The notes under the pieces were generated by a model that was not told where the DNA came from, searched no databases, and saw only the letters and a list, made by a program, of their open reading frames with translations. The position numbers and the translations under genes are program-made. From Candidatus Hodarchaeota archaeon (lineage in GTDB: Archaea > Asgardarchaeota > Lokiarchaeia > Sigyniarchaeales > SOKP01): a DNA stretch of 64,000 nt. Below, piece after piece: positions 46,354-55,895 of this stretch (positions are counted from its first letter, which is position 1; each line of letters starts with the position of its first letter). The stretch covers positions 7,532 to 71,531 of the forward strand of contig JBHLKM010000002.1 of NCBI GenBank assembly GCA_048886685.1. The letters are read 5' to 3'.

Positions 46354-48240
46354 ATGTTTATCAAAAAACAAACCTCTCGCCAAATCCCAGGAATAATTTC
46401 ATATATGGAATTTTTCCAGTCAAGAAAGTTAGCTTATTCTACTTTTATTGGTACTCCAATTGTAATTGGCTTATTATCGTTAGTTTTACATTATTTTTTA
46501 ATAGATGAAATAGACTTTTTACATTTTTTCAGATTTGTAGGATTATTTTGGTTTGTTTCAGCTTTAGGTGCTAGTTTTTCTATATTATTTTTTTCCAGAA
46601 AAGCACCTATCCTGCGAGCTCCTCCAAATGGATGGGCAATCCAAATGAACGTGTATTTTAGTGCTGTTATAGAATTAATTTTTATTTTTGGACAAATTAT
46701 TGCAATATTGCTCCAAGATATCTGGTATCAAGAGGTATTTTTTATCATGGGAACGATTATATCTTATATTGTTGCTTTTGTCATTTATTTCTCATTTACT
46801 ACTGTAGGTCGTCCAGGATACTTGATTTTATCACTTTTACAGCCTGTAGCTGCTATTATTCTCTATAGCCTTTATACTGGGCAATTTGATTCTGATTTTT
46901 TTATGAGAGCAATAATATTTTTTATTGCATGCGCTCTGTTATTTGCATTTCCATACCGAAGAGGTTTGTTTCAAGTGAGTAATATTTATAAGGAAGCAAC
47001 TGGTATGAGCGGATATCCCTTTATTCGCGCGTTTATTCTTTCTATGATGACAGATGGAAATGATGAGCTTATAGAGAGCTATTTTGAGAGGGTTGGGATA
47101 AATTCTAATGCTAGAATTCAGTATTTAATTATCCGTAGCATATCCTCAAAAGAAATTAAAGGCTTATTCATTATTCCACATATTCATTTCGGACCATTTA
47201 AGTCATGCGGTTCTTCAGATTTACCTGAACATATATATAGAGTATTTAAACACATCCCTGGAACCACAGTATATCATACAACTAATGATCACACTCAAAA
47301 TTTAACTAGTCAAAGCTATGTAGAAATCGTTTTAAAGAAAATAAAGCAAGATATTGAACTTATTAATAATAACCCAGATATTAATTGGGTTAAGGAAGTT
47401 AAAGATTTTTCAAGAAAGATCTCAAATTCTGCCAAACTCATTGGTATTGAAGTTGATAATGTCCCGATGATATTCATTACAAGGCATCCACTTCCTTCTG
47501 ACGATATCGAATCAGGGGTAGGAGATCGAATAAGAAAATATGCAATTTCAAAAGGCCATAAGGATATTATTATTATAGATTCACATAATGCCATTATTGG
47601 TGATGAGGTATTAATTAAAAGGGATTCTATTGAAGCACAAGATTTATTTAATGTAGCACAAAATTTCATTGAAAGTAAAACAGTTCAAGATTCTCAGAAG
47701 GTTCCGATGCGATATGGTGTTGCTAAAGGAGCATTTAAAAATTACTCTGAAAAAGATGGAATAGGTTTAGGCGGAATAGTTGTCCATTTATTTCAAAACA
47801 CCATTACTGATCAAACAACAGCATTAATTCACTTTGATGGAAATAATGCTTTCATAGATATTCGATCTTATATCTTAAATATGCTACAAAACAGAGGAAT
47901 AGAAAGAGGAGAAATTACAACTTCTGATTCACATACAGTAGCAAGACAATTTTCTGCTAGAGGTTATTCCCCCATTGGTGATAAAATAAAAATCGATGAG
48001 ATTCTAGAAAAATTAGATTTTTTAATCCAAGAAGCAGAAAACAATATAGAACCAGTTGAGTTTTATTATAGTGACTCGATAGAACCTAACGTTAAGATTT
48101 GGGGGAACCCAAAGTACTTTAATGCTATTATTGATACACTTAAAGAGGCACTTAGAGTATCTCAGAGCTTATTAACATTTAGTTTAATAATTCCTACGTT
48201 TTTTTCTCTGATATTATTATTTTTTCTCTATAATATCTGA
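46354..48240 (+). CDS. DUF2070 family membrane protein
   Basis: N-terminal TMs, then PHIHFGPF..CGSS, H...H, DSHN, DGNN and TSDSH motifs. Confidence 0.85.
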   Translation: MFIKKQTSRQIPGIISYMEFFQSRKLAYSTFIGTPIVIGLLSLVLHYFLIDEIDFLHFFRFVGLFWFVSALGASFSILFFSRKAPILRAPPNGWAIQMNVYFSAVIELIFIFGQIIAILLQDIWYQEVFFIMGTIISYIVAFVIYFSFTTVGRPGYLILSLLQPVAAIILYSLYTGQFDSDFFMRAIIFFIACALLFAFPYRRGLFQVSNIYKEATGMSGYPFIRAFILSMMTDGNDELIESYFERVGINSNARIQYLIIRSISSKEIKGLFIIPHIHFGPFKSCGSSDLPEHIYRVFKHIPGTTVYHTTNDHTQNLTSQSYVEIVLKKIKQDIELINNNPDINWVKEVKDFSRKISNSAKLIGIEVDNVPMIFITRHPLPSDDIESGVGDRIRKYAISKGHKDIIIIDSHNAIIGDEVLIKRDSIEAQDLFNVAQNFIESKTVQDSQKVPMRYGVAKGAFKNYSEKDGIGLGGIVVHLFQNTITDQTTALIHFDGNNAFIDIRSYILNMLQNRGIERGEITTSDSHTVARQFSARGYSPIGDKIKIDEILEKLDFLIQEAENNIEPVEFYYSDSIEPNVKIWGNPKYFNAIIDTLKEALRVSQSLLTFSLIIPTFFSLILLFFLYNI

Positions 48241-48326: not shown

Positions 48327-49052
48327 ATGTCATTAGATCCTTTAGATACGTTAAATGGAATATTTTCTCTTGTTTTTGTGGCAATATCTTTATTCGTGGG
48401 CTTTATAATAATCTCTCGATATTTTAAATACAAGGAAAGAGTATATCTTTTAGTTGGTGCTACTTGGGTTTTAATAGCTTCCCCTTGGTGGCCCTCTTGT
48501 ATCTCATTTCTGGTAGCTCTTTCTAATGGCGTTGGAATTACACCTGAATTCTACTTTTTGATAGGAAATATACCTGTCCCCTTGGCAGTGGCACTATGGC
48601 TATTGGCTTTTACAGAGTTCTTATACTCAGAAAAACGTAAGTTAATTCTTTCTATATTCACAGTAATTGGCTTAATCTTTGAAATTTTATTTCTTGTGTT
48701 TCTTTTTCTTAATTCGGATTTTATTGGTGAATTGAACGGGCCCGTAGACGTAAATTATAAATCTTTCATAATGTTTTTTTTGATATCCTATTTACTAATC
48801 GTTGTTATTACTGGATTTTTATTTGCAAATCTTTCTTTAAAATCAAAAGATCCCGAAGTAAAACTTAAAGGTAAATTATTGGTACTCGCATATATCTTCT
48901 TTTCAGTGGGGGCTTTATTAGATTCATCCATACCTTTAAATGAGACATTAATCATAATAACAAGACTAATCTTAATATTAAGTGCATTCTTTTGGTATTC
49001 TGGGTTCTTACTACCAAGGTGGTTGAAAAAATATCTTTTAAAAACAAAGTAA
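48327..49052 (+). CDS. 7-TM membrane protein, putative receptor
   Basis: Seven hydrophobic segments with basic loops after TM1, TM3 and TM5 and a basic C-tail; no enzymatic domain. Confidence 0.8.
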   Translation: MSLDPLDTLNGIFSLVFVAISLFVGFIIISRYFKYKERVYLLVGATWVLIASPWWPSCISFLVALSNGVGITPEFYFLIGNIPVPLAVALWLLAFTEFLYSEKRKLILSIFTVIGLIFEILFLVFLFLNSDFIGELNGPVDVNYKSFIMFFLISYLLIVVITGFLFANLSLKSKDPEVKLKGKLLVLAYIFFSVGALLDSSIPLNETLIIITRLILILSAFFWYSGFLLPRWLKKYLLKTK

Positions 49053-49151
49053 CCTTTCTATTTTTTCTCTATATTACTTAGATATTATCCAGATTCATAT
49101 TTTTTTTCAATCCATTGTTTCTTAATAATTCATTTAAAGTCATGAATCGTA

Positions 49152-49673
49152 ATGTTAAGTTCAGAACTCGAAAAATTGGTGAAGTTAACGCTTATAGGGT
49201 GTCCCGCTGTTGGAAAAACCACCATAGTTAAACTCTTATCAGAAAATACATTAGATCGCTTTTATATTCCAACTCATGGATTGGATTTAAAATCTATAAA
49301 GTTTGATGATTATTATTTAAGACTTTGGGATTTGGGGGGACAGAATAGTTATTTAAGAACATACTCAAAAGATTACTTGCTTGGATCCGATATTATTTTC
49401 GTAGTAACAGACTCTACACCTCGAAATGTATTAAACTCAAGAGAATTAATTAACTATGCATATCATTTTGTGGGGAAAGAATGTCCGATCATCGCAATAG
49501 CGAATAAGCAGGATTTAAAAGATGGTAGAATGGATGCTAAAAGAGTTGAGGATCTTCTACATGTGAAAACATATGGATTAACAGCTATAGAACCAGCAGA
49601 AAAAATGAAATTAATGAAAATAATAAAAAATGAATTAGAAAAAATCGCAATTAGGAGGGGATTAAAGAAATGA
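49152..49673 (+). CDS. Arf-like small GTPase
   Basis: G1 GCPAVGKTT, G2 YIPTHG, G3 WDLGGQ, G4 NKQD, G5 TA; all intact. Confidence 0.92.
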   Translation: MLSSELEKLVKLTLIGCPAVGKTTIVKLLSENTLDRFYIPTHGLDLKSIKFDDYYLRLWDLGGQNSYLRTYSKDYLLGSDIIFVVTDSTPRNVLNSRELINYAYHFVGKECPIIAIANKQDLKDGRMDAKRVEDLLHVKTYGLTAIEPAEKMKLMKIIKNELEKIAIRRGLKK

Positions 49674-50230
49674 ATTTTAATGAAGAAGAATTATTTGGGG
49701 CTGCTTTAATTGGATTTGATATGATTGATGGCCCTTTCCTTAAATGGAAAAAAGAATATAATAAAACAAAAAATATGGTAAAGTTAGATGATTTTGCAAT
49801 GAATTTTTATCTCGCCTTTCGAGGTGGAAATGCATCAGGGAAAAAGCCTAGAGCTATTTTATATGACAATTTTTACATAGTAGCTTTTCCAAGAGATTTG
49901 GAGCTCTGTTGTTTGTTTATGAAACCTGAAGATCTTGATGAAAATATTAAGCAATTAAATAAAGTAGCATGTAGAATTATTACAGAAATGGAAATAATAG
50001 AAGAAAATAAAGCAGAAGAACAAGAAGATTCAGATGAAAATACCGTAGAAGAAATAATGAGAATAATTCCTAATTTATTAACAGGAACTAAGATGACGAC
50101 TCCTGAATTGAGAAGATATTTCAAACTTAGTAACTCTCAAATTTGGAAAATAATGTCTGATTTAGAAAATTCGAAAAAAATCAAACGTTCAGAAAAAAAA
50201 GGAAGAGCTCAACTTTGGACGGCACTTTAA
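49670..50230 (+). CDS. uDENN/longin-like N-terminal domain plus C-terminal winged helix
   Basis: ATGA overlap with the GTPase; LIGFDMIDGPFLKW start motif, acidic linker, MTTPELRRYF.LS.SQIWKIMSDLE...I.R wHTH. Confidence 0.65.
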   Translation: MNFNEEELFGAALIGFDMIDGPFLKWKKEYNKTKNMVKLDDFAMNFYLAFRGGNASGKKPRAILYDNFYIVAFPRDLELCCLFMKPEDLDENIKQLNKVACRIITEMEIIEENKAEEQEDSDENTVEEIMRIIPNLLTGTKMTTPELRRYFKLSNSQIWKIMSDLENSKKIKRSEKKGRAQLWTAL

Positions 50231-50262: not shown

Positions 50263-51078
50263 TTATCTTGTCCTATGATCCCAACCTTTCTCCTTAGTAT
50301 AAAGACGAGAAAACATAATATAGCAAATATCAGGTAATTCCTTCTCTAAATTGTGCACTGTAATATATCGAAGAATATGATTCAAAACGAATATACCAAC
50401 AAATTCAGCATGATAACTTCCTAAGTTTTTTTCTAATTTGTTTCCGTGAAATTTAATATCTAATCCATTCTCCTTTTCCCACATAATCTCTGTGAAGATT
50501 TCTGGGAAAATTTCCTTTTTAATTAGCCAACCATTAACAGTTTTCCATACCCTAGCTCCTAAAAAAACCTCAAGTTTTTCTTGATCTTTTTCTAGCAAGA
50601 ATTTGAATGGTTCAGCTCTTTGTAATAATACCTTTTGCATCAAATCTGATTTTGAGTTATAATTCTTTTCAAATGGCTCCTCTTTTTTTAACTTTCTTTC
50701 AATAAAATCCATGACAATATCGATAAAAGTTGCACTATCTTCACCAGGCACCCAAATAACATGCTTACCCGAGAAATAAAATTTAAATTCTGCTTCAATT
50801 CCATCTCCAAATTCATCCCCAAAATAAGTATATGCCATATGAATGTTTACTTCAGGAAACATTTCGAGAGTAATAGTCCAATCCTCGCTAAAACCAATAT
50901 TTTCAATTATTCCCCCAAGATCATTGTTAACTATTGATTCAAGGGCATTTAAATCAACATTTAAGAAGATAGAATATTTATTTTTACTAATATCTCCTAA
51001 TTCTTTCTCATGGGGCCCTCTTACGCCTGTAGCATCAATTTGTCCAATAGTCATGAATTTCCTATTTTCAGAAGGCAT
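50263..51078 (-). CDS. Hypothetical protein with two DUF3786-like repeats
   Basis: W...EMFPEVNIH...GDEF...F...GEDSA and a second W...EIFPEIF repeat. Confidence 0.6.
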   Translation of the reverse strand: MPSENRKFMTIGQIDATGVRGPHEKELGDISKNKYSIFLNVDLNALESIVNNDLGGIIENIGFSEDWTITLEMFPEVNIHMAYTYFGDEFGDGIEAEFKFYFSGKHVIWVPGEDSATFIDIVMDFIERKLKKEEPFEKNYNSKSDLMQKVLLQRAEPFKFLLEKDQEKLEVFLGARVWKTVNGWLIKKEIFPEIFTEIMWEKENGLDIKFHGNKLEKNLGSYHAEFVGIFVLNHILRYITVHNLEKELPDICYIMFSRLYTKEKGWDHRTR

Positions 51079-52508: not shown

Positions 52509-55500
52509 TTATTGTAATTCAGCCGGCATTATTAATCCTTTTCTTTTTAATGAAATAATTATGCTAATAATCTCGTCTCTCGAAGCTTTTCTCCCCGCTA
52601 AACCAAAATTCAAAAGACTTGATACAAAAAAGAATTTCCTTTCTTTCTGTATTTCCTCCGCTAATTCTACAAGATCTTTTTCTAAACCTTTTAACTTTAC
52701 TACTCCGTAATGTTTTCCTAATTGAAGTGGATAAACGAAGGTAACATTGAAGAATCTTTCAATTAAATCATCAGCGGCTCTGAAAGGAGTAATATCTCCC
52801 ATAAAATTCTTCAAATTGGGTTCAAATCTTCTTTCAAAAGATTCTGTGAATGCTATTTGACTTTCTTTTAATTTTTCAGAAGGAATGCCGTCTAATATCA
52901 AGGCTACTCGAACATAATCTCCATCGGTGATAACAATTTTAAAATCATAATAATCCATTTCAAAACCCTTACCTCTTGGGGTTTTTTCTGCATCTTTTTT
53001 AATCTCAGTTCTAAATTGTGAAATGGCTTGTAAAAATCCTGAAATTAAATCTGAATCAATCCCTTCTAAAGAAATTTGCTTATCAAAAATTGAGACTCCA
53101 CTATCTTTTTCAATTATCATTATATAAGCAATTTTCAATAAATCATCTAAAATTTTAGCTTCACCCGCCCAAAATCTTCTTTGTCTCGAATGTCTAATAT
53201 GTCTTACCGTAACAAACGTTATAGCAGCAGCCAAACCTGCTATTATATAAGGTAAATAACGCATAAACGTATCCATGAAAAGTATAAACTCCGACACAAC
53301 TTTAATATATCCTGAAACGATTTCCGCGCTTGTATACATCCCCTCTTCTGCAAATGTAGCTCGAACAGAAAATCTACTACCAGTATTTTCGAATTTTAAA
53401 GAAGCTGTTGCCACTCCTTGATCATTGGTTACTGCCGTAGTTTCATATAAAGTAATATTATTAGCATTTAGTACTTCAAAGATTATTTCAACATTCTCTA
53501 ATGATTTTCCTCCTGGCTCAAAAACTCTAGCGGAAATGAATCTAGTTCCTGTCATATACTGAGAGGCAGGAGGTTCGATAAACTCTATGATGGGTTCTAT
53601 TTTAAAAATTTCATACGTCCCATTGACGTCAAAGCGTATAGAATGCCATTTGGATATAACATTGAATTCAAAAAACCCGTGAGAAATATCAGCGTTATCA
53701 ATATCTGCTTCCCATGTTCCCATACCAATTCCATTATCAAGCACATCTACCCCGAAATTTTGTAATTCTATTTCTGACGCAGTTAACGTATTGCTATTGA
53801 TTCCTAAGCCCAAAGATGACGAGATATCTGAAGATATTGCATTTTGTATATAAAAATTCACATTAAATTCGTTAATAGAAACAGTAAAACCATAATCGGA
53901 TGATGAGTTTGAGAGATATCTCAACCGAAATTTTACTTGATTATTTTCAGATTCATTTAATAATTGTAAAAGAATCCAGGTAAACCCTGCGTCAAAAGGT
54001 AATAAATCTGTAGTTTCATCCAGATGAGCGAGTGTTCGATTCTCACTTATTAAAATCCAATCTTTGTCATTTTGATTTTGATCAAAAAAGTCAAATGTTT
54101 CATTACCTTTATAGAGCTCTAATACCGCAAAATCTAAATTGTCTGGTTTGCTCACATTAGAACTAATTCTTACATGTATTTGCGGAATGATTGGATTTGG
54201 ATAAGAAACAATCCAATCGTAGAAATCTATGTTCCAGAGAGAGCTATCAAGATCTCCTAAAACGTTTAATGTGAATTCAATAGAAATATTGCTTGTTAAT
54301 GCTTGAGCTCTATATTTATCATCATCGTTGAATTCAAGGAAATCAACAGTCTGATTGCCAAAAGGTATAGTGGTTCCATTAATAACGTTTACATCATTTG
54401 GAACGAAAAATTCTTGGATTAAGGGATCATACCTTTGGATTGTATCGAGGTTGTCCAGCTCTCCTATTTCAACCTTAAATTGATTAATTGATGCAGTAGC
54501 ATTAGCACCCCCATCTGTTATATATTCAAATTTAAATCTAAGAGTATTATTTTTCAATGGACCGATATCCATAACATGTAGGAAAAATAATTTTTCTTCT
54601 GGATCGCGTGCTGAGTAATAAAAAGAATATTCACTTTCTCTTATTATATTGAGTCCAAGATCTATCCATTTTGGTTGGAATAATCCTGCTTTAAAATTAT
54701 AAACTGATAAATTTGCAGATTTTATATGAGAACTGTCAGAAATATTTAATGTGAAATAAAAATCAAAACTAAATATATATCTATAGTGTTCAAACCACCA
54801 ATTAATAAGCTCAGGTTTCAGTGCTCGCAAATATAATTCCCAATAATTAAATGGAGAATTTTTTAAGTTTTTTAAATCAAACTGAATGTCTATTGTTAAA
54901 TTATTTAAATCAGTTGCAGTATATCTATCTTCATCAATAGTTTTAAAAGATTCTGGGGTTCCTTGAGGAGCTAATAAATATCCACTTGTAACCTGGGCTC
55001 GCTCTACATCATTTACTGTATAATTATCAAAATAAAAATCAGGTGAGATAGCAAAAGTATCTCCTTCTCCTATATCTTCACTATCAGGATTAAAATATAA
55101 GAATTTAGGACCACCACCAGAGAGCTCATCGTCAGGAGGTAGCTTAATTCGAAATGCAAACCAGTATTTATTGACACTTCCTTCAGTTGTCATATTAGTT
55201 TTTGAAGTATCTAGGAAAATTGGTCCAGATTCAGAATTTTTAAAATCAAAAACTTCCCAATGAGCAGCATAGATTATAGGATGAGGTTTTTGTAAAACAC
55301 CCAAATTTTCTACTGTGTTAGGCGTTCCATCATTAGAGCAGTTCACAATAGCCACTTCCCATGAATTTTCATCTGTAAAAGAAGTAGGATTATTAATATC
55401 CTGGATAAGAATACTCACATTATTTATGTATTGACTTATTTCAACTGCAAATTTTTGATAAATATAAGTAGGTTCAACTCGAGAACTAGAAATAAACTCA

Positions 55501-55895
55501 GAAAAGTCATTTTCTATATAGCGAGTATAATTAACTGCTGTAATGTTCTCAAAGGACATTTTTGCATGTGAAATATTATAGTTTGGAATATAAATGCTAG
55601 GTTGGACATTTAAACCTGGTTGATCTCGGTTGATATAACAATACTTACTGATACTTGTGATATTACTAAATATTTTTCCTGTACGGTTAATAGCTTGAGG
55701 GTAGAGTGGATAAGAATTTCCTTGCGAATCTGCTGCTGGAAAAATAATAGATTTAGAGTTATAAACTGGAATAATTATAAAGGATATTAAAAGAAAAGTA
55801 ATGAGCATTTTGTTATTAATAGTTTTCATTTGTAAAAACCTCATTTTTTTTAAAATATAAAGAACAACTTTAGTTACAAATGAGAGATCAGACAT
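52509..55895 (-). CDS. Large single-pass surface protein with cytoplasmic longin-like and wHTH-like domains
   Basis: Signal-like hydrophobic N-terminus, Asn/Ser-rich beta ectodomain, Ig-like segment (TNDQGVATA), TM, then YIMII...GVSIF...DSDLISGFLQAI..F..EI. Confidence 0.8.
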   Translation of the reverse strand: MSDLSFVTKVVLYILKKMRFLQMKTINNKMLITFLLISFIIIPVYNSKSIIFPAADSQGNSYPLYPQAINRTGKIFSNITSISKYCYINRDQPGLNVQPSIYIPNYNISHAKMSFENITAVNYTRYIENDFSEFISSSRVEPTYIYQKFAVEISQYINNVSILIQDINNPTSFTDENSWEVAIVNCSNDGTPNTVENLGVLQKPHPIIYAAHWEVFDFKNSESGPIFLDTSKTNMTTEGSVNKYWFAFRIKLPPDDELSGGGPKFLYFNPDSEDIGEGDTFAISPDFYFDNYTVNDVERAQVTSGYLLAPQGTPESFKTIDEDRYTATDLNNLTIDIQFDLKNLKNSPFNYWELYLRALKPELINWWFEHYRYIFSFDFYFTLNISDSSHIKSANLSVYNFKAGLFQPKWIDLGLNIIRESEYSFYYSARDPEEKLFFLHVMDIGPLKNNTLRFKFEYITDGGANATASINQFKVEIGELDNLDTIQRYDPLIQEFFVPNDVNVINGTTIPFGNQTVDFLEFNDDDKYRAQALTSNISIEFTLNVLGDLDSSLWNIDFYDWIVSYPNPIIPQIHVRISSNVSKPDNLDFAVLELYKGNETFDFFDQNQNDKDWILISENRTLAHLDETTDLLPFDAGFTWILLQLLNESENNQVKFRLRYLSNSSSDYGFTVSINEFNVNFYIQNAISSDISSSLGLGINSNTLTASEIELQNFGVDVLDNGIGMGTWEADIDNADISHGFFEFNVISKWHSIRFDVNGTYEIFKIEPIIEFIEPPASQYMTGTRFISARVFEPGGKSLENVEIIFEVLNANNITLYETTAVTNDQGVATASLKFENTGSRFSVRATFAEEGMYTSAEIVSGYIKVVSEFILFMDTFMRYLPYIIAGLAAAITFVTVRHIRHSRQRRFWAGEAKILDDLLKIAYIMIIEKDSGVSIFDKQISLEGIDSDLISGFLQAISQFRTEIKKDAEKTPRGKGFEMDYYDFKIVITDGDYVRVALILDGIPSEKLKESQIAFTESFERRFEPNLKNFMGDITPFRAADDLIERFFNVTFVYPLQLGKHYGVVKLKGLEKDLVELAEEIQKERKFFFVSSLLNFGLAGRKASRDEIISIIISLKRKGLIMPAELQ

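Follow-up and report, generated by a model that had tools for sequence, protein, structure and literature searches.

The question raised by the locus at positions 48327-50230 of the 64,000-nucleotide stretch of DNA analysed here (the window), which is a portion of contig 2 of an Asgard archaeal genome of 4.4 Mb (G000), is whether a seven-transmembrane (7-TM) protein, an Arf-like GTPase and a third protein encoded one after another form a precursor of eukaryotic G protein-coupled receptor (GPCR) signalling, as was proposed in the original prediction. Three co-oriented open reading frames (ORFs) were found on the plus strand in the ORF list of the window, as had been described: 48327-49052 (241 aa), 49152-49673 (173 aa) and 49670-50230 (186 aa; ORF3). 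Sequence searches gave conserved homologs in the hundreds for each of the 7-TM gene, the GTPase gene and ORF3, and therefore none of the three is a chance ORF. The functional unit is a translationally coupled two-gene operon (49152-50230) that encodes the GTPase and ORF3, and the 7-TM gene is an unrelated neighbour that was acquired in one genus and lies outside this unit. The analysis thus removes the tempting proto-GPCR reading as unsupported; what the locus holds is one conserved, single-copy, translationally coupled pair of a predicted ArfL GTPase and a longin protein, which is open to direct expression and assay.

Conservation of the GTPase-ORF3 pair

ORF3 was used as a query against 200 genomes of the phylum, by which 50 loci were retrieved, and the neighbouring window proteins were mapped onto all 50; the 7-TM protein was used as a query against 60 genomes of the order. 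NCBI labels of Thor-, Hermod-, Hod- or Odinarchaeota on proteins with 75-90% identity to ORF3 were left out as evidence of taxonomic spread. The GTPase gene and ORF3 were adjoining and co-oriented in 40 of the 40 order-level loci first examined, and the same held for each of the roughly 45 order-level genomes examined, among them three closed ones from the sister family f2 (4.4, 6.0, and 4.3 Mb). For two family f1 genomes that gave no ORF3 match, the GTPase gene was found to lie at a contig end, and in one of the two the first 17 residues of ORF3 can still be read. Outside the order, a GTPase gene with 38-45% identity followed by an ORF3 relative was found in the Asgard families f9, f10, and f16 (f16 is Candidatus Borrarchaeum). 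The same adjacency is present in the original Loki's Castle metagenome, where the locus tags LCGC14_1721380 and LCGC14_1721390 are consecutive. The tight linkage of GTPase and ORF3 that had been claimed for the window was therefore shown to be conserved far beyond it.

The coupling junction in the window spans 49653-49673 on the plus strand. A Shine-Dalgarno-like sequence, AGGAGGGG (49653-49660), lies within the 3′ end of the GTPase gene, and behind it the start codon of ORF3 overlaps the stop codon of the GTPase gene in an ATGA (49670-49673), which agrees with the coupling originally proposed. Across the 50 loci in which the two genes share a strand, the junction ranged in 49 from an overlap of 17 nt (-17) to a gap of 15 nt (+15), and GGAGG was present 8-12 nt upstream of the ORF3 start in most of the 50. 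Many ORF3 orthologs (L003, L004, L007, L008, L011-L015, L020, and others) have TTG or GTG instead of ATG as their apparent start, the choice of start being heuristic, and GGAGG is retained in these. Despite the presence of 45 GTPase paralogs in G000, ORF3 is single-copy in this genome, and the GTPase itself forms a single-copy orthologous group, the nearest of the 45 paralogs being at most 36% identical to it. The conserved operon has been shown here, as have the gene structure, the predicted folds and the conserved motifs of the pair.

The 7-TM protein (48327-49052, plus strand) contains seven hydrophobic segments by Kyte-Doolittle hydropathy, as had been noted, and its basic residues are grouped after TM1, TM3, TM5, and TM7, which is consistent with an N-out/C-in topology. 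No Pfam or NCBIfam family matched the protein, and no homology to any receptor family was detected by Pfam, NCBIfam or the Atlas search, in which HisKA_7TM was the closest named neighbour, a weak lead (0.87). According to the search of the 60 order genomes, the family is unnamed and confined to this Asgard order, with 1-27 copies per genome, some of them in tandem. The highest count of matches, 27, was obtained for G185, and G000 gave four (three confirmed by tblastn). Besides the window gene, the G000 copies are C2:135529-136284 and C17:4763-5488 (tblastn), and neither of them is close to any of the 45 GTPase-like genes.

The original prediction had taken the three genes for a candidate signalling module, and had named the want of a conserved neighbourhood with the 7-TM gene as one of the results that would speak against it. 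When synteny was compared, the 7-TM gene was found upstream of the GTPase gene in genus g1, to which the window belongs (11 loci, with 70-78% identity in L001-L010), and in one of the two g5 genomes only, where the copy is 45% identical. The best 7-TM matches elsewhere outside g1 are 43-48% identical and lie on contigs other than that of the GTPase-ORF3 pair. Apart from that one g5 genome, the gene adjoins the pair neither in the six remaining genera of the family nor in family f2, among the loci fetched. The neighbourhood is therefore not conserved, a result that the original prediction had itself set as counting against the module. The GTPase gene is immediately preceded by a DUF2070 gene in g4 and by a TM/zinc-ribbon gene in g2 and one g6 locus, and is flanked by unrelated genes in g3, g7, and family f2. 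Since the DUF2070 gene directly precedes the pair in g4, this suggests that the 7-TM gene was inserted between the DUF2070 gene and the pair in the genus of the window. The T-rich gap of about 100 nt that had been pointed out between the 7-TM gene and the GTPase gene measures 99 nt (49053-49151, plus strand; 50% T), and contains a T6 run (49061-49066) and a T8 run (49100-49107) 3′ of the 7-TM stop codon. An AT-rich TATA-like stretch was read about 27 nt upstream of the GTPase start codon. The oligo-T runs may act as an archaeal terminator, and the GTPase-ORF3 pair may have its own promoter.

The ArfL-class GTPase and the domains of ORF3

The GTPase (49152-49673, plus strand, 173 aa) matched Pfam Arf with 70 bits (cut-off 22.3) and Pfam Gtr1_RagA weakly, and its best PDB sequence matches were Arl3 and Arl2, the best 18 all being Arl or Arf. 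The G motifs were found to be complete, as had been claimed: G1 GCPAVGKT (residues 16-23; 49197-49220), the switch-I T41, G3 DLGGQ (60-64; 49329-49343), G4 NKQD (118-121; 49503-49514), and G5 TAI (144-146). The Arf-type signature is present (WDLGGQ, NKQD and the Pfam Arf match), and the GTPase is predicted to be catalytically competent. As regards the amphipathic N-terminal helix by which the Arf family proper binds membranes, about 10 residues precede beta1 in the window GTPase, in a short and charged segment with a helical hydrophobic moment of 0.63. Invariant among the GTPase orthologs are G1, the switch-I Y-x-P-T-x-G, the first and last G3 residues (D..G), ANKQDL, and the TDS (T86-D87-S88) that follows beta4 inside a nearly invariant VTDSTP. 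The catalytic Gln is replaced by His in two distant Asgard lineages, where the orthologous GTPases (L041:1933-2409 and L042:5352-5831) read DLAGH in place of DxGGQ and the C-terminus of the ORF3 partner is different or poly-Arg.

ArfL is said to have been treated as an Asgard-specific group of Arf-like GTPases by Klinger in 2016 and by Vargova in 2025. Orthologs of the window GTPase carry the name "ADP-ribosylation factor-like protein" at NCBI, and a cluster 78% identical to it includes KKK45873.1 of Lokiarchaeum sp. GC14_75. This ortholog was assigned to ArfL by tree in Table S3 of Vargova et al. (bioRxiv 10.1101/2024.02.28.582541), in which KKK44255.1 is the sole ArfR of the GC14_75 genome, and ArfL was described in the same work as exclusively asgardarchaeal and without direct relation to eukaryotic Arf proteins. 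Zhu et al. (PMC11914678) placed Arfl near the Rag and Rup2 clades and outside the Arf clade. By orthology to the published tree assignment, the window GTPase would thus be an ArfL, and going by the published placement it would fall outside the Arf family proper, which comprises eukaryotic Arf/Arl/Sar/SR-beta and Asgard ArfR. Arf-like is therefore a correct name, but the bridge to G-alpha, which the original prediction had built on an extended Arf clade, is weak because the ortholog was classed as ArfL and was placed outside the Arf clade in two studies. The closest paralogs of the GTPase in G000 are proteins of 344-350 aa in which an N-terminal extension, longin-like by sequence, is followed by an Arf-type GTPase domain; by their predicted domain content, such fusions as closest paralogs show that GTPases of this class act together with longin domains.

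A search with ORF3 yielded 491 close proteins at E ≤ 0.001, of which the best 120 showed 74-100% identity. When an ORF3 profile was compared with 1.8 billion representative proteins, only 33 clusters at 50% identity were obtained, consisting of short proteins or gene fragments and one weak match inside a 1617-aa protein, and none of the 33 could be tied to a eukaryotic family in this search. In Pfam, at E up to 1, ORF3 matched nothing, nor did it match any NCBIfam family, and the family is unnamed. No profile homology to Folliculin, NPR2 or C9orf72 was found in Pfam or among PDB sequences (E up to 10), and in the genome-wide scan PF06218 and PF11704 gave no match at the locus. The Atlas language-model neighbour of ORF3 was a cluster with 19% Pfam NPR2 members, at a score of 0.78 that is below the real-versus-chance level.

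The full-length AlphaFold2 model of ORF3, from an alignment of 26 sequences, reached a predicted local distance difference test (pLDDT) value of 78. It divides the protein into a longin-fold domain (residues 1-104; 49670-49981), an acidic linker with a net charge of -8 (residues 105-122; 49982-50035), for which model confidence was low at 111-121, and a winged-helix domain with a net charge of +6 (residues 123-186, followed by the stop codon; 50036-50230), all on the plus strand. The model of the N-terminal domain alone, from 38 sequences, reached pLDDT 83 and a predicted template modelling score (pTM) of 0.72, with strands at 8-17, 21-29, 62-64, 69-75, and 78-84 and helices at 39-51 and 89-111. 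In this model the domain follows the longin order, beta-beta-alpha-beta-beta-beta-alpha, with a five-stranded sheet.

For the N-terminal domain, every Foldseek row listed and almost every one of the top 50 VIA-align rows belonged to the longin/roadblock superfold. These neighbours include LAMTOR subunits, MglB, dynein LC7, and the longins of AP (sigma/mu) and COPI small and medium subunits, as well as Mon1-Ccz1, BLOC-3, TRAPP, MK-D1 and Odin roadblocks, C9orf72-SMCR8 (Z 6.0), and DENND1. All of them are GTPase-activating proteins (GAPs), guanine-nucleotide exchange factors (GEFs) or platforms of GTPases. The longin/roadblock superfold is accordingly supported at the level of the model, in which structure leaves the subtype undivided. 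The matches to DENND1A/B were weak (Foldseek E 0.017-0.03). The DENN family (uDENN-DENN-dDENN) was rejected for ORF3, whose 186 residues are made up of longin, linker and winged helix without DENN or dDENN. Of the uDENN/longin domain that had been predicted, the longin-type fold and an invariant aromatic-D-x3-G-P stood, and the uDENN label did not; DENND proteins are themselves without the Gly-Pro (GP) motif (PMC12290439).

The sequence LIGFDMIDGPFLKW, with which ORF3 had been said to start, is present, but at residues 13-26 and not at the very start. Five residues were invariant in 38 diverse members of the family, namely D17 (49718-49720, plus strand), G21 and P22 (49730-49735), Y47, and P60. 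According to the model and the alignment, the aromatic-D-x3-G-P forms the beta1-beta2 hairpin, and G21-P22 open strand beta2 (21-29). A study of longins that included a set of 15 from Asgard archaea found the GP motif in those of FLCN, NPRL2, C9orf72, and SMCR8 and in some of the Asgard ones, at the end of the beta1-beta2 loop or the start of beta2, and found it absent in FNIP2, NPRL3, adaptins, TRAPP, and DENND proteins (PMC12290439). The corresponding residues of C9orf72 are W33-D34 and G38-P39 (PMC12290439), and the Asp-to-Gly-Pro spacing of ORF3 is that of C9orf72. The GP motif of ORF3 thus reproduces that of the FLCN/NPRL2/C9orf72/SMCR8 longins.

The winged helix with which ORF3 had been predicted to end was borne out by the AlphaFold2 model, in which helices 123-136, 144-151, and 155-167 and strands 171-177 and 180-185 form a three-helix bundle plus hairpin. 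Compared by VIA-align with the winged helices of ArsR/SmtB, MarR, Z-alpha, SelB, and Rpa2, this domain showed Z 10.3-8.2 and a root-mean-square deviation (rmsd) of 1.6-2.4 over about 60 residues. In the divergent ORF3 member P0128 the Pfam HTH_DeoR cut-off is passed, the Borrarchaeum ORF3 has another C-terminal segment with a weak helix-hairpin-helix (HhH) match only (IMS_HHH, E 0.07), and in two lineages the C-terminus is a poly-Arg tail. Because the winged helix is replaced in diverged lineages by a DeoR helix-turn-helix, by a segment with weak likeness to HhH or by poly-Arg, this suggests that the C-terminal function is polyanion binding, and the winged helix of the window ORF3 most likely binds nucleic acid.

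Readings of the pair

In place of the pathway from receptor to GTPase to DNA that had been proposed, the evidence favours a GTPase with a longin-winged-helix partner. We regard it as reasonably probable that ORF3 is a dedicated longin partner of ArfL, either a regulator or an effector, that links the state of the GTPase to nucleic-acid binding. Judged by the analogy of all longin/roadblock proteins characterised so far, ORF3 would bind ArfL through its longin domain, at or near the switch/nucleotide face of the GTPase. ORF3 would act as a GAP- or GEF-like regulator or would read the nucleotide state of ArfL, and the winged helix would give the output or the site of action. ORF3 would in this way resemble a one-component regulator in which the sensor domain detects a GTPase and not a small molecule, and a longin joined to a winged helix would be an unusual output of a small-GTPase switch. 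The physical interaction, the direction of regulation and DNA binding are the parts of this reading that we infer.

Several results weigh against it. No sequence-profile link of ORF3 to a eukaryotic longin family was found in Pfam, in PDB sequences (E up to 10), among the 1.8 billion representatives or in the genome scans. The structural matches of the N-terminal domain are moderate (Z 7.8-5.4; Foldseek E 2.5e-3 or weaker, about 1e-3 to 1e-2), and their scores do not separate longin from roadblock subtypes. No Arg is invariant family-wide in the 38-member alignment. Short ORF3-like longins (112-150 aa) occur away from any GTPase in families f8, f15, and f19, and a fused GTPase-ORF3 protein was looked for and not found, which is weak evidence. 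The winged helices of ESCRT-II, cullin and Rpa2 score within about 2 Z units of the best match (8.2-9.0 compared to 10.3), and winged helices can make protein-protein contacts too.

That ORF3 is a GTPase-controlled transcription factor, in which the longin domain reads the state of ArfL and gates the winged helix, possibly by release of the acidic linker, and in which the hairpin marks kinship to C9orf72/FLCN/NPRL2, is conceivable but on the unlikely side. If true, the pair would give the first genetically defined GTPase partner of the Asgard GP-motif longins, for which ArfR or Rag GTPases have been asked about as partners (PMC12290439).

The 7-TM receptor, Arf-like GTPase and longin-winged-helix effector of a proto-GPCR pathway from membrane to transcription would account for the co-orientation of the three genes, the order of which is retained in the ten other g1 loci examined, and for the GPCR-like N-out/C-in topology suggested by hydropathy. 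This reading is nevertheless highly improbable, as the 7-TM gene lies elsewhere in the other genera and in family f2, its paralogs are multi-copy at unrelated loci, in G000 away from all 45 GTPase genes, and the T6/T8 runs and the 99-nt gap separate it from the pair. Compared to eukaryotic GPCRs and heterotrimeric G proteins, the locus is alike only in a 7-TM topology beside a GTPase gene, in one genus. It differs in the lack of a conserved linkage; the GTPase, as an ArfL outside the published Arf/G-alpha lineage, is without a G-alpha helical domain, and the 7-TM protein has no detectable homology to GPCRs or other receptor families. More weight, though still that of an unlikely explanation, can be given to ORF3 as an arginine-finger GAP of ArfL of the FLCN/NPRL2/SMCR8 type, that is an archaeal forerunner of Rag-GATOR1/FLCN or Arf-C9orf72-SMCR8. 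The invariant GP motif occupies the position seen in GAP longins, the window ORF3 has R75 on the neighbouring beta4-beta5 turn, ArfL was placed near the Rag clade in one study (PMC11914678), and the weak Gtr1_RagA match of the GTPase and the Atlas lead to an Asgard cluster with NPR2 members point the same way. Against this, the R75 position varies between R, K, N and H in close orthologs, conservation of R51 and R61 is confined to part of the family, and the mechanism is unsupported because no Arg is conserved; a classical arginine-finger GAP is thus unlikely on the alignment. In addition, no Folliculin or NPR2 profile matched, the Atlas score was below the real-versus-chance level, eukaryotic GAP longins are heterodimers with DENN-like C-domains, which ORF3 does not have, and the catalytic Gln is His in two distant orthologous GTPases. 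C9orf72 is likewise without an arginine finger, and the missing finger of ORF3 is for that reason compatible with a C9orf72-like non-catalytic role. As candidate roles for ORF3 there remain this one, that of an MglB-like GAP without a catalytic residue, and that of an effector.

A polarity or positioning switch like MglA-MglB, with the winged helix serving protein contacts or dimerisation and not DNA, seems rather improbable to us. It would fit the high structural ranking of MglB and the MK-D1 roadblocks (Z 7.8-7.0). MglB acts as a GAP without contributing a catalytic residue, which fits the missing conserved Arg of ORF3, and winged helices that do not bind DNA score within about 2 Z units of those that do. 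The topology of ORF3, however, begins with a strand, as in longins, and not with the N-terminal helix of roadblocks, its C-terminal module is basic, and this module is swapped for the DeoR helix-turn-helix, the weakly HhH-like segment or the poly-Arg tail in other lineages. Less probable again is an ordinary one-component transcription factor, whose alpha/beta N-terminal domain would bind a small ligand and which would merely be co-transcribed with the GTPase gene. Full-length Foldseek matches of ORF3 to CprK, CodY, and CRP, all consisting of a sensor and a winged helix (E about 1e-3), and the short ORF3-like proteins without an adjoining GTPase in three Asgard families would suit such a factor. 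These full-length matches, however, have TM-scores of 0.21-0.30 and rmsd 15-22 Å and are driven by the common winged helix, and CodY, CRP, and CprK were rejected as relatives; the N-terminal domain alone matches longin/roadblock folds only, and the tight, translationally coupled junction is retained across classes.

Related systems and neighbouring genes

Pairs of a GTPase and a longin/roadblock protein are already known from MglA-MglB, conservons and Rag-FLCN/GATOR1, and Asgard archaea contain dozens of small GTPases and many longin/roadblock proteins. No description of an ArfL-longin operon, of a longin-winged-helix fusion or of the spread of the pair in Asgard archaea was found in the literature searched. 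Asgard GP-motif longins were published in 2025 (PMC12290439), and the native regulators of Asgard Arf-type GTPases were described as unidentified in PMC11914678. ORF3 is similar to FLCN, NPRL2, C9orf72, SMCR8, and the Asgard GP-motif longins (PMC12290439) in its longin fold, in the Gly-Pro at the start of beta2, in the Asp spacing of C9orf72, and in its association with a small GTPase. It differs from them in showing no profile homology, no conserved arginine finger, no DENN-like C-domain and no second longin subunit encoded nearby, and in that its longin is joined to a winged helix and its predicted ArfL partner is encoded in the same operon.

The mglBA operon resembles the pair in that a small Ras-superfamily GTPase and a roadblock/longin regulator are encoded side by side, MglB itself matching with Z 7.8; the gene order is reversed here, the strand order is of the longin type, a winged helix is added, and the GTPase is an ArfL and not MglA. 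The nearest described prokaryotic counterpart of the proto-GPCR idea is the conservons (CvnA-D), which were named an actinobacterial G protein system by their authors (PMC13343842, PMC13621833, PMC4316618). Like the locus, a conservon is a prokaryotic operon of a small GTPase, a roadblock-type regulator and further proteins (PMC13343842, PMC13621833, PMC4316618). It differs from the locus, where no membrane component is conserved, in its conserved histidine-kinase-like membrane sensor and its distinct DUF742 GEF. At the locus a longin-winged-helix fusion is the regulator, with no DUF742 match in Pfam. In MK-D1, GTPase genes were reported to lie generally outside operons with roadblock or longin genes, to which the ArfL-ORF3 pair is therefore an exception, and longin-GTPase fusions were described (PMC10933270).

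Such Asgard longin-GTPase and roadblock-GTPase fusions (PMC10933270), which in G000 are represented on contig 6 (101-103 kb), share an ArfL-like GTPase and a longin with the pair; here the two are separate genes, the longin following the GTPase and carrying a winged helix. At 101246-105215 of contig 6 (L065, L068), two 350-aa genes in tandem each code for a predicted longin domain fused to an ArfL-type GTPase domain, and facing them is the gene of a 553-aa protein that has an FDxxxGP hairpin like that of ORF3 at its start, followed by PAS-GAF-PAS sensor domains. When the ORF3 family was aligned by hhalign with the N-terminus of the 553-aa protein, the probability was 5% and was due to the hairpin motif only. 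The contig 6 genes could represent a sensor-longin-GTPase arrangement.

In the window, a 1128-aa surface protein is encoded on the minus strand at 52509-55895, made up of a large N-terminal part, a single TM segment and a cytoplasmic tail of about 240 aa. The tail matched no Pfam family and showed no profile similarity to ORF3 (hhalign probability 0.3%). By sequence pattern it resembles a roadblock/longin segment with a winged-helix-like end behind it, and it gave 13 further tblastn matches in G000. Upstream of the 7-TM gene, at 46354-48240 on the plus strand, lies the gene of a DUF2070 membrane protein (Pfam 278 bits). Convergent to ORF3, at 50263-51078 on the minus strand, is the gene of a 271-aa protein without a family match, followed by an RsmB/NSUN-type methyltransferase gene; this arrangement was absent in several g2, g3, and g7 loci and from family f2, and was found in nearly all loci of family f1. 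In family f2, a Cys-rich protein of 271-297 aa with the motif GPNC.DP..C.GDCCF flanks the pair (L038:1233-2075, L039:3477-4292, L040:4091-4984), being divergent upstream of it in two loci and directly downstream on the same strand in the third.

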